A stretch of DNA of 64,000 nt from Limnothrix sp. BL-A-16 (lineage in GTDB: Bacteria; Cyanobacteriota; Cyanobacteriia; CACIAM-69d): contig CP166615.1 of assembly GCA_041937175.2 (NCBI GenBank), positions 2,144,001-2,208,000 on the forward strand, in the 5' to 3' direction. The notes beneath the pieces are model-generated. The model was not told the DNA's origin, did not search any database, and worked only from the letters and a program-made list of their open reading frames with translations. Made by a program: the position numbers and the translations under genes. Positions 9,801 through 11,586 of the stretch are shown piece after piece; position 1 is the stretch's first letter; each line of letters starts with the position of its first letter.

Positions 9801-10203
9801 GGTTGTCTCAATGCAGCATCAAGCGGCATCTGCATTAAACCAAACTCAAACTTAAGCTCAAACTTCAAACCAGAAGCAAACTTCAACTCAAACCTCAACA
9901 AGGCCTGTAAAGCCCCTTGGCCCCATCCTCTCGCCAAAGCGGGATCAGGGTTGGGGAAACCCAACGAAAGATGCTCAAAATCCTAGGGGGTATCGTCATT
10001 TTTCGAGGTGATACTGAAACGGTTGATCTTCTGTGCCCTAATCTTCGTAACAAGGGGCTTAAGCCCCTTGTCCCCCATGATCCGTTAACGACAGATCTAG
10101 GGTTTCGTGCTCAACGATGACAGGTCTTAAGCCCCTTGTCCCCCACGATCCGTTAACGACAGATCTAAGGTTTCGTGCTCAACGATGACAGGCCCTTGTA
10201 TGT

Positions 10204-10422
10204 GGAAGGCGGTGGAGCAGGAAGGTTAAGCTCAGGCATAATCGACCCTCTCCCATCCGGTAGAGACTCTGGACAGGCCCTGAAGCTCCGAAGCTTGAGG
10301 CTTAGATTGAAGAGCCGACCGGAACCCGCCTTCCCGGACACTGCCAGTAGACTGAACAGTATTCAGAGTGACCGCTTGAGCGCTGTCACCTCGGATCAAG
10401 CAAGGGTAGCACTGGGTCAGTG
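10204..10422 (+). ncRNA. IS110 bridge RNA (target-binding and donor-binding loops)
   Basis: LTG ACAGGCCCT 10273-81 equals the left flank 10188-96. RTG GGCTTAG 10299-305 is the reverse complement of CTAAGCC. LDG ACAGTAT 10356-62; RDG GCAAG 10400-04; enclosing stems present. Transcript ends are approximate. Confidence 0.9.
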
Positions 10423-10451
10423 ACCGTCCCTCTTTCTTGTCCACCCCAACC

Positions 10452-11465
10452 ATGACTAATCCAATCTATATTCCCCTGGGCATCGACATCAGCAAACACC
10501 ACTTCGATGTTGCCCTCTGCAAAGCACCCTCGACCGCTCGCAGCAAAAGTGCCTTTCACACCAGCCAGTTTGCCAACAACGAAACCGGATTTCACGAATT
10601 ACTCGCTTGGCTCGAACAACACCAAGTCCACCACATTCATGCTTGCCTAGAAGCAACTAACATTTATGGTCATGAGTTGGCAGCCTTCCTGTATCAACGG
10701 GAGCAGCGGGTCAGCATTGTGAATCCTTCCCAAGTCAAGGGCTATGGGCAAAGTCGCCTGAAGCGCACCAAGAGTGACCAGGCGGATGCGGGAGTGATTG
10801 CCCAATTCTGTCGTGACCTGACTCCTCCCCTGTGGGAACCGTTACCGGAAGCCCTAGAGCAATTGCAGCAGCTTTCCCGCCGCGTGGAAGCGCTGATCTC
10901 GATGCGGACTGAGGAGAAAAATCGGTTGGACTCTTGCCGTAATCCCCACTTACAGACTGATCTACAAGCCCATATTGCCTATCTGTCGGAGCGGATTGAT
11001 GACCTAAAAAAGCTTATGCGCGAGCATATTCGCGCCCATGAAGCCCTTGCTCATCAAAGCCAATTGCTCTGCTCGATTGTCGGCATTGCGGAAACCACCG
11101 CCACCAACTTGTTGGCGGAGATTGGTGTGATTCAGCGCTTTGCTTCCGCTAGACAATTTGCGGCTTTTGCAGGTCTCACTCCCCGAGAATTTATCTCGGG
11201 GACATCTGTTCGCGGCAAGACTCGATTGTGCAAAATTGGTAATGGTCGGCTGCGAAAAGCCTTCTATTTTCCAGCCTTGTCAGCCTGTCGCTATTGTCCT
11301 GAGATTGCAGCATTTCGCAACCGATTAGTCGCGGCGGGCAAAACACCCATGCAAGCCATTGGCGCTGTGATGCATAAGCTGGCCAGGATTGTTTTTGGGG
11401 TGCTGCGGCATGACAGACCGTTTGACCCCAGCCAACTGGCAGTCACCACAGAGCCTTGCTCTTAG
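10452..11465 (+). CDS. IS110 DEDD recombinase/transposase (337 aa)
   Basis: GIDISK, LEATN and KSDQADA (DEDD); SGTSVRG serine loop; LRKAFYFPA; intact frame from ATG 10452. Confidence 0.97.
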
Positions 11466-11492
11466 GCTTTACATTTTGTCACTTTCAGACCC

Positions 11493-11520
11493 TTGCGCCT
11501 CCTCGGCGAACACAGTATCT
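11493..11520 (+). promoter_or_regulatory. IS110 circle-junction promoter
   Basis: TTGCGC (11493-98), a 17-bp spacer, then TATCT (11516-20), which becomes TATCTT only when joined to the left end. Confidence 0.7.
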
Positions 11521-11586
11521 AAGCCCCTTGTCCCCCACGATCCGTTAACGGCAGATCTAGGGTTTTGGGCTAAGCGATGACAAGCC

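Follow-up and report, generated by a model that had tools for sequence, protein, structure and literature searches.

Positions 10197-11518 of the window (the whole stretch of DNA analysed, 64,000 nt of Limnothrix sp. BL-A-16, GCA_041937175.2, CP166615.1, positions 2,144,001-2,208,000 of the forward strand) very probably constitute an intact insertion sequence that belongs to the IS110 group, is of IS621 type and has a readable bridge RNA. IS621 of Escherichia coli has a bridge recombinase and a 177-nt bridge RNA (Durrant, PMC11208160; Hiraizumi, PMC11208158). The anatomy of the element, its homology, the co-variation of guides and flanks, the ends, the identity of the copies and the insertion polymorphism were all observed directly. 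The mechanism is of the known IS110/IS621 kind, known since 2024, and the element is a well-documented new example of it that leaves the known mechanism unchanged.

The host genome is denoted G000 and the two same-genus genomes G001 and G002, and L-numbers denote copies and relatives of the insertion sequence. The comparison set comprised eight elements from six lineages (the window element, L005, L006, L007, L008, L010, L028 and L029). The element and its surroundings contain the following features.

10058-10192, + strand: tandem repeat of two 68-bp units (tandem repeat finder), the unit junction bearing the target
10188-10194, + strand: left target ACAGGCC, host DNA, identical in 4/4 copies and equal to the non-core part of the left target guide
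10195-10196, + strand: left copy of the CT core; CT flanks both sides of the element, as against one CT at the orthologous empty site of G002
10197-11518, + strand: insertion sequence proper, 1322 bp, present as identical copies in G000, with ends set by the empty site
10197-10201, + strand: right donor TGTAT, which opens the left end and belongs to the 14-nt donor that is identical to that of IS621
10452-11465, + strand: recombinase gene, 337 aa, with DEDD RuvC-like domain, coiled coil and Tnp domain (profile and structure-sequence matches)
11512-11518, + strand: left donor ACAGTAT, the last bases of the right end, read directly and unchanged in the eight elements
11519-11520, + strand: right copy of the CT core, read directly and by empty-site comparison
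11521-11525, + strand: right target AAGCC, host DNA, complementary to the right target guide

With the ATG at 10452 as start, which is consistent with the alignment to the IS621 protein, the non-coding left end comprises 255 nt (10197-10451); the right end has 53 nt (11466-11518), and the termini (TGTATG... and ...ACAGTAT) form no inverted repeats. G000 carries four copies, all with intact frames and with 100% sequence identity across the 1322 bp, and each of the four has CT on both sides without a longer duplication. At the locus of copy L002 the empty site in G002 reads GACGACATGCC-CT-AGGACTC as compared with ...GGCC-CT-[IS]-CT-AGGATTC in G000, that is, the left and right flanks are joined via one CT without the element. 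A clean orthologous empty site in G001/G002 was obtained for copy L002 only; at the insertion locus of the window element itself the entire repeat array is missing from G002, and for copies L001 and L004 the IS-adjacent repeat was absent or rearranged in the G001/G002 comparison.

In DNA searches the element was not found in either of the two same-genus genomes, and a search of the other 38 relatives gave a single marginal match (43 bp, E 7e-4). In contig X2 from a DNA metagenome and contig X17 from an RNA library the right end is joined to flanks that in G000 are next to unoccupied sites, which read ACAGGCCCTAAGCC and ACAGGCCCTAAACC. The identical copies and the insertion polymorphism support, indirectly, that the element has recently been mobile, and it is in this indirect sense that the term active, used in a preliminary description of the sequence, is supported. 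It is improbable that we are instead dealing with a bridge-RNA insertion sequence that is now immobile in the strain, its four copies reflecting a past burst or spread by repeat recombination. Such immobility would fit with the joined donor ACAGTATCTTGTAT having no occurrence in the assembly and no joints in the contigs of four runs, and with an integrated (linear) form in which a promoter-like site was looked for and none found, but the absence of the circle junction is uninformative because assembled contigs drop rare forms and circles are rare intermediates. The complete identity and intact frames of the four copies, the failure to find the element in 2/2 congeners and the finding of the same site occupied in metagenome contigs and empty in G000 argue against it.

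The recombinase matched PF01548 (4.1e-29) and PF02371 (2.5e-24) and scored 244 bits (cut-off 140) against the NCBIfam model NF033542, 'IS110 family RNA-guided transposase', by which NCBI already names the protein family. The best solved relative was IS621 (8wt6; phmmer against the PDB, E 6.5e-68, residues 9-328) and the second best ISCro4 (9t56, E 9e-66). In the phmmer alignment to 8wt6 residues D12, E67, D109, D112 and S249, the last being the serine of the SG loop (S249-G250), were aligned to D11, E60, D102, D105 and S241 of IS621, the catalytic roles of which have been described (Hiraizumi et al. 2024, PMC11208158). The DEDD residues and the serine are thus intact, as had been claimed earlier.

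The left end can be read as a bridge RNA with the following parts.

10204-10212, + strand: possible long-range helix, 5' strand GGAAGGCGG, pairing with 10326-10334 (CCGCCUUCC) in MFE folds
10214-10253, + strand: 5' stem-loop GGAG...CUCC (MFE folds)
10256-10323, + strand: target-binding loop with closing stems UCCGGU/ACCGGA and CUCU/AGAG (fold with guides constrained)
10273-10281, + strand: left target guide (LTG) ACAGGCCCU, 9/9 equal to left flank plus core and co-varying in relatives
10283-10296, + strand: target-loop hairpin AAGCU-CCGA-AGCUU (arms 10283-87/10292-96, read directly and in the constrained fold)
10299-10305, + strand: right target guide (RTG) GGCUUAG, reverse-complementary to CTAAGCC (11519-25)
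10306-10307, + strand: target-loop handshake guide AU, complementary to donor positions 6-7 (AT of ACAGTAT)
10335-10426, + strand: donor-binding loop with closing stems (constrained fold, similar shape in all eight elements)
10356-10363, + strand: left donor guide (LDG) ACAGUAUU, of which ACAGTAT (10356-62) equals the right end at 11512-18
10368-10389, + strand: donor-loop hairpin GUGAC...GUCAC (arms 10368-72/10385-89 read directly; constrained fold)
10395-10404, + strand: right donor guide (RDG) AU-CAA-GCAAG, discontiguous, in which AU and GCAAG (10400-04) pair with AT and CTTGT
10405-10406, + strand: putative donor-loop handshake guide GG, complementary to target positions 6-7 (CC of ACAGGCC)

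All of the positions and motifs given in the preliminary description, including the guides, the hairpins and the stems CCGGT/ACCGG and CTCT/AGAG, were found in the sequence. The 9-mer ACAGGCCCT at 10273-81 recurs unchanged in the left flank (10188-96), and the strands follow the published rule that the LTG corresponds to the top strand of the left target and core while the RTG complements the top strand (Durrant, PMC11208160). In IS621, too, a 5' stem-loop stands first in the bridge RNA (Hiraizumi et al. 2024, PMC11208158). The helix 10204-10212/10326-10334 would, if formed, enclose the 5' stem-loop together with the target loop, and its counterpart was seen in 4/6 lineages folded (MFE). For the stems of the target loop the sequence differs yet the pairing is kept in the other seven elements (constrained folds), and the target-loop hairpin occurs in relatives in compensatory versions (AGCGU/ACGCU and AGAC/GUCU). 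AGAT at the target-loop handshake is unchanged in 8/8 aligned elements, and the corresponding bases of IS621 are A81/U82 (Hiraizumi et al. 2024, PMC11208158). In the donor loop, the stem CACTGCCAGT/ACTGG..CAGTG is present in the sequence, and both ACAGTAT of the LDG and TGTATGT of the left terminus are unchanged in all eight elements. The eighth LDG base, U, would wobble-pair with the bottom-strand G of the core. The RDG pairs with CTTGTAT with one G-T wobble and three looped-out bases, and the GG that follows it may act as handshake guide, being in a position homologous to G166/U167 of IS621 (PMC11208158).

Chance as the source of the guide matches was excluded by shuffling the 255-nt left end 200,000 times. 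The flank 9-mer was present in 305 shuffles, the reverse-complement 7-mer in 3034 and the right-end 7-mer in 2001; the first two occurred jointly in 6, and all three motifs in none. The unconstrained MFE of the whole left end was unremarkable (z = -1.3, with 21/200 shuffles equal or better) and in this fold the LTG was paired with the RTG region, and therefore folding energy by itself would not have revealed the structure. A search of positions 9800-11900 against Rfam 15 gave no matches even at E <= 1, so that there was no curated bridge-RNA family against which the left end could be scored. RNAalifold on a MAFFT alignment of the eight left ends gave no consensus pairs, the 3' strands of the stems being at variable offsets across the aligned sequences; the shared structure therefore rests on guide-constrained folds of each sequence and not on a column-wise count of covariation. 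When the guides were held unpaired, 8/8 elements gave the same two-loop shape with stems of differing sequence, the closing stems being UCCGGU/ACCGGA, AAGGAUGG/CCCGUCCUU, GCGGAG/CUCCGC, GAGAAG/CUUCUC, ACCAGG/CCUGGU and GGGGGCAAGAG/CUCUUGCCCC.

If the guides are functional one would expect them to change together with the flanks in related elements. Five cyanobacterial relatives are listed here with their percentages.

L005: Geitlerinema sp. S16, 64%
L006: Oscillatoriales MAG, 63%
L007: Spirulina MAG, 58%
L028: Kovacikia minuta plasmid pA, 57%
L029: Leptolyngbya boryana plasmid, 47%, annotated 'pilin gene inverting protein'

These five have donor ends and, in the constrained folds, a two-loop left end like those of the window element, each with its own LTG, RTG and target, and guide-RNA annotation is absent from all of them. 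The LTG matched the element's own flank at 9/9 positions in the window, L006, L008, L010 and L028 and at 8/9 in L005 and L029; in L007 a match required a shift by one base (7 non-core bases), with the best 9-mer match elsewhere. Of the seven related elements, from five further lineages, six thus have an LTG that matches their own flank, and the distance to the own flank is 0-1 in 7/8 elements overall, whereas the best distances between LTG and flank across lineages were worse, 2-4 (LTG sequences ACAGGCCCT, ACGCACCCT, GGTGTCTCT, ACCCAACCT and TTCACGGCT). The RTG matched the own right flank at 7/7 positions in the window, L008 and L029, at 6/6 and 4/4, respectively, in L007 and L006 (contig ends), and at 4/4 positions of core+2 in L005, L010 and L028. 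The core+2 match was thus present in 8/8 elements, and all 7 bases matched in 3/6 elements with a full 7-base flank. This co-variation of guides and flanks across six lineages supports the IS621-type reading, as do the left target common to 4/4 copies, the empty site and the intact catalytic residues, and the architecture proposed in the preliminary description is accordingly upheld.

That the left end is merely a 5' UTR or regulatory leader, with flank matches arising because the flanks are terminal repeats of the element, is scarcely credible. The same 10 bases are indeed found to the left of all four copies, but such a leader is contradicted because the G002 empty site joins both flanks via one CT without the element, 31 unoccupied sites carry the 14-mer target without an insertion sequence, and the flanks of the relatives differ, with the internal 9-mer changing in step.

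Returning to the bridge-RNA reading, copies at sites unrelated to the target, which would have spoken against it, were looked for, and ACAGGCCCT was found to precede the element in 4/4 genomic copies. The right targets of the other copies are AGGCC, AGGAT and AAGTC. The 7-nt RTG forms 7 Watson-Crick pairs with the right flank in one copy, 6 Watson-Crick pairs and 1 wobble in two copies, and 4 Watson-Crick pairs, 2 wobbles and 1 mismatch in the remaining copy, so that 3/4 right flanks fall short of a perfect Watson-Crick match. The element interrupts a third 68-bp unit, which resumes beyond the right side. The 14-mer target is part of a dispersed repeat and has 31 perfect copies in the genome that are unoccupied, as compared to 0.048 expected from base composition. 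The natural target of IS621 lies in host REP repeats, and the pattern that IS110 elements live on host repeats is here extended to a cyanobacterial 68-bp repeat family.

The left context GACAGGCCCT is common to 4/4 copies, that is, beyond the 9 nt of the LTG, and the 31 unoccupied sites have tgacgACAGGCCCTAAGCCccttg in common. It is possible, though we consider it somewhat unlikely, that RNA pairing does not by itself set the target choice of this bridge-RNA element and that the complex of recombinase and RNA depends in addition on some feature of the host repeat, in structure or sequence; such dual-match logic is reported for ISPpu10 (2026 preprint, 10.64898/2026.03.19.712850). This would explain why all copies lie in one repeat family with the longer left context GA(C/T)GACAGGCCCT and the conservation past the LTG in copies and empty sites. 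However, membership of a single repeat family accounts equally well for the extra conservation, the right side of copy L002 (AGGATTC, with an orthologous empty site in G002) is not repeat-like, and IS621 itself accepts reprogramming towards targets other than REP (Durrant et al. 2024, PMC11208160).

The following course of events can be envisaged. The 255-nt left end would encode a bridge RNA with two internal loops, in the donor loop of which ACAGUAU(U) as the LDG and AU...GCAAG as the split RDG would pair with the joined circle ends ACAGTAT-CT-TGTAT. A tetramer of the DEDD/serine recombinase would hold both duplexes on one RNA and strand exchange would take place at the shared CT core, so that after insertion CT would flank the element on either side and nothing else would be duplicated. 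Its natural target, ACAGGCC-CT-AAGCC, is found in the dispersed 68-bp host repeat family, akin to IS621 on REP. By analogy with the family, transcription from a circle-junction promoter, RNA-protein binding, catalysis and reprogrammability would be expected.

The RNA of IS621 was compared by eye with that of the window element, using the sequence in the Durrant supplement. The 14-nt donor ACAGTATCTTGTAT (ACAGTAT-CT-TGTAT) is identical in the two elements; the preliminary description had named it as the IS621 donor, correctly according to Durrant Supplementary Table 2 (PMC11208160) and a passage in PMC13396178. The protein architecture and the five catalytic residues are alike, both elements carry the RNA upstream of the gene, in the left end, and have a CT core, and the parts come in the same order (5' stem-loop; 9-nt LTG, hairpin, RTG and AU; LDG, hairpin, split RDG and handshake). 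The RDG of IS621, AU-UU-GCAAG followed by GU, loops out two bases (UU) while that of the window loops out three (CAA), and the G-T wobble noted earlier in the right donor guide is the same as the published G161:dT12 of IS621, whose RDG is A157-U158/G161/C162-G165 (Hiraizumi, PMC11208158). Other differences concern the host (a cyanobacterium versus Escherichia coli), the protein identity, which judged by eye is well below half, the target (ACAGGCC-CT-AAGCC versus ATCGGGC-CT-AC), the RTG match (7 nt versus 4, extendable), the eighth LDG base (U, wobble, versus C), the length of the left end (255 nt versus 191 bp) and the possible extra long-range helix around the 5' stem-loop and target loop of the window element. 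No E. coli genome was matched by the element in blastn. Two relatives on enteric plasmids, L030 and L031, are not IS621; the distance of L031 from 8wt6 equals that of the window element.

Elements of the IS1111 group, with their seekRNAs, belong to the IS110 protein family and share the RNA-guided principle, and have a long non-coding region and the RNA downstream of the gene. In the window element, in contrast, the RNA is upstream of the gene and the right end has just 53 nt, and it therefore belongs to the IS110 group. The IS1111-group seekRNA is named in PMC13604230. ISCro4, which resembles the window element in its protein, is in the clade of IS621 in the Durrant tree table (PMC11208160), and its bridge recombinase has been used for human genome rearrangement (bioRxiv 10.1101/2025.05.14.653916). 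Cyanobacterial proteins, one row being labelled IS621;ISCro4, are already included in the same tree table (PMC11208160), and judging by titles and abstract openings we found no paper on the bridge RNA of a cyanobacterial IS110 element.

A candidate promoter would be formed at the circle junction.

11493-11498, + strand: TTGCGC, candidate -35 of a circle-junction promoter, 17 nt before TAT-CT-T (by inspection)

TAT-CT-T is formed only by joining the right end to the left end. The junction geometry TTGC-N17-TATCTT was found in 5/8 elements (window, L005, L006, L007 and L028), and the other three have TTGACN-17-TATGTT. The candidate -35 of the window is 7 nt further upstream than that of IS621, and its -10, TATCTT, spans the core, while the -10 of IS621, TATTAT, is within the left end (read by eye from the junction sequence in the Durrant supplement). 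The left end is covered by contigs of three RNA libraries from three studies (X15, 10193-10404; X17, 10212-10631; X18, 10193-11402), which as assembled contigs may include DNA, do not prove transcription and give no information on its start, strand or level. Their starts disagree, being at 10193 (host flank) in X15 and X18 and at 10212 in X17, and the start derived from the promoter is at about 10204; the start in IS621 is at the equivalent left-end position 15 (read by eye from the Durrant supplement sequence). In X17 the 23 letters directly before 10212 are presumably sequencing adapter, and this start, from one contig of unknown strandedness, is a hint of an RNA 5' end at 10212, which conflicts with the 10204-10212 long-range helix. 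The depth of X17 was 14.6 in the left end versus 3-5 in the gene, contig depth being a measure that cannot rank parts of the gene.

One reading of these data, which on balance we regard as rather unlikely, is that the cyanobacterial clade (window, L005, L006, L007 and L028) has a variant RNA design, in which the -10 TATCTT lies on the core, the promoter is shifted by 7 nt, the transcript starts about 7 nt earlier and the extra 5' bases GGAAGGCGG pair with CCGCCUUCC. Together with the 7-nt RTG, such a design could make the guide more specific and self-contained.

The element represents a natural bridge-RNA recombinase of a freshwater cyanobacterium for which four guides, both handshake dinucleotides (that of the donor loop putatively), the ends and the target are defined. 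Its distance from IS621 is about that of IS621 from other enteric relatives, yet the donor is identical. For the engineering of cyanobacteria it might be tested as an orthogonal or host-adapted bridge recombinase, with 31 identical landing sites already present in the host. A 98% variant of the element was present in a wastewater RNA library (run X18), and its sole difference in the 255-nt left end is G10300A, located inside the RTG; judged from the sequence this would be a natural retargeting, from CTAAGCC to CTAAGTC.

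Read from its DNA, the element (window positions 10197-11518, 1322 bp, with a CT core on each side) is a genuine bridge-RNA insertion sequence of the IS621 type whose guide set is complete and readable, and it is recently mobile in a freshwater cyanobacterium, where it targets a host repeat. The type of system is already known: the NCBI family name is already 'RNA-guided', and the tree table of Durrant et al. (PMC11208160) holds cyanobacterial proteins, one row being labelled IS621;ISCro4. The recombinase matched PF01548 (DEDD_Tnp_IS110, 4.1e-29), PF02371 (2.5e-24), NCBIfam NF033542 'IS110 family RNA-guided transposase' (244 bits, cut-off 140), the solved IS621 recombinase 8wt6 (E = 6.5e-68, residues 9-328) and ISCro4 (9t56, 9e-66). 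The DEDD residues and the serine, described earlier as intact, are so in the alignment with 8wt6, where D12, E67, D109, D112 and S249-G250 correspond to D11, E60, D102, D105 and S241-G242, the composite active site of IS621 (Hiraizumi et al., PMC11208158).

Features of the element (window coordinates)
10188-96, left flank, same letters as ACAGGCCCT
10273-81, left target guide (LTG) ACAGGCCCT, in the left end (10197-10451)
10283-87 / 10292-96, hairpin AAGCT/AGCTT
10299-305, right target guide (RTG) GGCTTAG, reverse complement of CTAAGCC at 11519-25
10306-07, AU after the RTG, complementary to donor positions 6-7
10356-62, ACAGTAT, left-end copy
10368-72 / 10385-89, hairpin GTGAC/GTCAC
10400-04, GCAAG
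10405-06, GG after the right donor guide (RDG), complementary to target positions 6-7 (CC)
10452-11465, recombinase ORF, 337 aa
11512-18, ACAGTAT, right-end copy

All the guide motifs and coordinates of the preliminary description were borne out, each being read in the sequence at its place. When the 255-nt left end was shuffled 200,000 times, the flank 9-mer was present in 305 shuffles, the 7-mer in 3034 and the two jointly in 6; with the right-end 7-mer added, the number was 0.

Relatives with available DNA were gathered by a related-locus search and a plasmid search, and came from Geitlerinema (L005, 64% protein identity), an Oscillatoriales MAG (L006, 63%), a Spirulina MAG (L007, 58%), a Kovacikia plasmid (L028, 57%), a Leptolyngbya boryana plasmid (L029, 47%) and Abditibacterium (L008-L012, 46-48%). 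The ends ACAGTAT, CT and TGTATGT were kept in all of them. Eight elements were compared (the window element, L005, L006, L007, L008, L010, L028 and L029), and the LTG position held a different 9-mer in each lineage, matching the left flank of that very element: 9/9 in the window, L006, L008, L010 and L028, and 8/9 in L005 and L029, whereas the best match of a left end to the flank of another lineage still had 2-4 mismatches. The exception was L007, in which the seven non-core LTG bases match the flank only at a one-base offset. The RTG matched its own right flank at 7/7 in the window, L008 and L029, and up to the contig ends at 6/6 in L007 and 4/4 in L006; in L005, L010 and L028 the core and two further bases matched (4/4), with 4-5 of 7 overall. 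The L029 recombinase (Leptolyngbya boryana NIES-2135 plasmid1, CDS NIES2135_63690) is IS621-like but carries the annotation 'pilin gene inverting protein', an older name that derives from Piv, and its left end has the full bridge-RNA layout fitting its own flanks. In L006 (1206-1250) the first ~32 left-end bases are duplicated with (G)CACCCT before each copy, as if the whole element, or a piece of it, had integrated beside its own remnant.

The plain minimum-energy fold of the left end was not unusual (z = -1.3; 21/200 shuffles equally or more stable) and paired the LTG with the RTG, so that folding energy alone is insufficient to reveal the structure. RNAalifold on a MAFFT alignment of the left ends gave no consensus structure because the 3' strands of the stems shift by a few bases between lineages, and this ruled out a column-wise covariation count. 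When the guides were kept unpaired, all eight left ends were predicted to form the same pair of internal loops, with closing stems that vary in sequence between elements and stay complementary.

No sigma-70-like site was found in the integrated form of the element. With the ends joined, TTGCGC (11493-98) sits 17 nt upstream of TAT-CT-T, and this TTGC(N2)-17-TATCTT geometry was present in 5 of the 8 elements; the other three have TTGACN-17-TATGTT, which on our reading of the published junction sequence is that of IS621 (Durrant et al., PMC11208160). A junction promoter of the TATCTT geometry would place the RNA start near 10204, and a 9-bp helix could then form between 10204-10212 (GGAAGGCGG) and 10326-10334 (CCGCCUUCC), around the 5' stem-loop and target loop. 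This possible helix appeared in folds and had counterparts in four of six lineages (window, L005, L028 and L029, not L007 and L008); the available text of Hiraizumi et al. and Durrant et al. describes no IS621 counterpart. RNA-library contigs, which prove neither transcription nor ends, cover 10193-10404 (X15), 10212-10631 (X17) and 10193-11402 (X18) over the left end. The start of X17 at 10212 conflicts with the helix, and the adapter-like letters immediately before it are presumably sequencing adapter.

The IS621 donor given in the preliminary description was correct: the wild-type bridge RNA has target specificity ATCGGGCCTAC and donor specificity ACAGTATCTTGTAT (Durrant et al., Supplementary Table 2), the donor also lies within an oligo of PMC13396178, and the window donor is identical. 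Each of the four guide pairings of IS621 takes in the core, and nine bases of the RDG are paired, discontiguously, with seven of the donor (Durrant et al., PMC11208160). That RDG comprises A157-U158 and C162-G165; G161 forms a wobble with dT12, and U159-U160 are flipped out (Hiraizumi et al., PMC11208158). The window RDG, AU-CAA-GCAAG (10395-10404), shares that wobble, the single G-T wobble reported earlier, with three bases looped out as against two in IS621. The IS621 handshake guides lie at 81-82 and 166-167 (Hiraizumi et al., PMC11208158); their counterparts in the window would be AU at 10306-07 and GG at 10405-06. The eighth base of the left donor guide is U in the window and C in L007, L008 and IS621, and this U would still be able to form a wobble pair with the bottom-strand G. 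Small variations from IS621 that deserve mention are the split RDG with its 3-base bulge, the 7-nt RTG, the putative shifted junction promoter and the possible additional helix.

Four copies, 100% identical over 1322 bp, are present in the host genome (4.56 Mb, two contigs) and are its only PF01548 matches. The guides had been said to match the insertion site; in the host genome GACAGGCCCT precedes all four copies, and CT follows each of them. The right flanks are CTAAGCC (window), CTAGGCC, CTAAGTC and CTAGGAT; against RTG GGCUUAG the window copy forms 7 Watson-Crick pairs, two copies form 6 and one U-G or G-T wobble, and the remaining copy forms 4 with 2 wobbles and 1 mismatch. The empty site of one copy in a same-genus genome (G002) reads GACGACATGCC-CT-AGGACTCTTCGG uninterrupted and its occupied counterpart ...GACAGGCC-CT-[1322 bp]-CT-AGGATTCTTCGG, which fixes the element ends and shows that CT alone is doubled. 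By DNA search the element was not found in either of two same-genus genomes, and 38 further relatives gave only one marginal 43-bp match. In a lake-metagenome contig (X2) and in X17 the right end runs into flanks which in the host genome adjoin ACAGGCCCTAAGCC and ACAGGCCCTAAACC, sites that carry no element there; the same sites are thus found in nature both occupied and empty. Taken with the identity of the four copies, this indicates recent and site-directed mobility. The public runs in which the DNA occurs were lake and freshwater metagenomes. A 98% variant (23 differences over 1210 bp) was seen in the wastewater RNA library X18, its sole difference in the left end being G10300A within the RTG, which would turn the RTG complement CTAAGCC into CTAAGTC.

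The 14-mer ACAGGCCCTAAGCC occurs at 31 unoccupied sites in the host genome (0.048 expected), always as tgacg-ACAGGCCCTAAGCC-ccttg. The window target is the unit junction of a 68-bp tandem repeat (10058-10192, 2 units, 97% matches), the next unit resuming beyond the element. Both congeners are rich in this repeat family (the first ~70 right-flank bases gave 43 and 25 matches), and the DNA search did not find the IS in them. IS621 targets REP sequences, and the placement of the element on a host repeat parallels this and the REP-targeting of ISPpu9/10. The 68-bp unit (CTTAAGCCCCTTGTCCCCCACGATCC...GATGACAGGT) is tandem here (10058-10192 and 11521-11590) and dispersed genome-wide; 64 occurrences of its AAGCCCCTTGTCCCCC were counted in each strand orientation, and many copies contain the palindrome ACAAGGGGCTTAAGCCCCTTGT. 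Upstream of the array lies a short AAACTC-rich tandem repeat of period 6 or 30 (9837-9898), and the orthologous place in G002 holds a different, CAAACCAGAATCAAGCT-like repeat. Adjoining the insertion is a 673-aa ORF (11587-13608, minus strand), with a G002 ortholog 96% identical in DNA, which, judged by eye from its transglycosylase/transpeptidase motifs, resembles a class A penicillin-binding protein; the IS lies ~65 bp past its stop codon.
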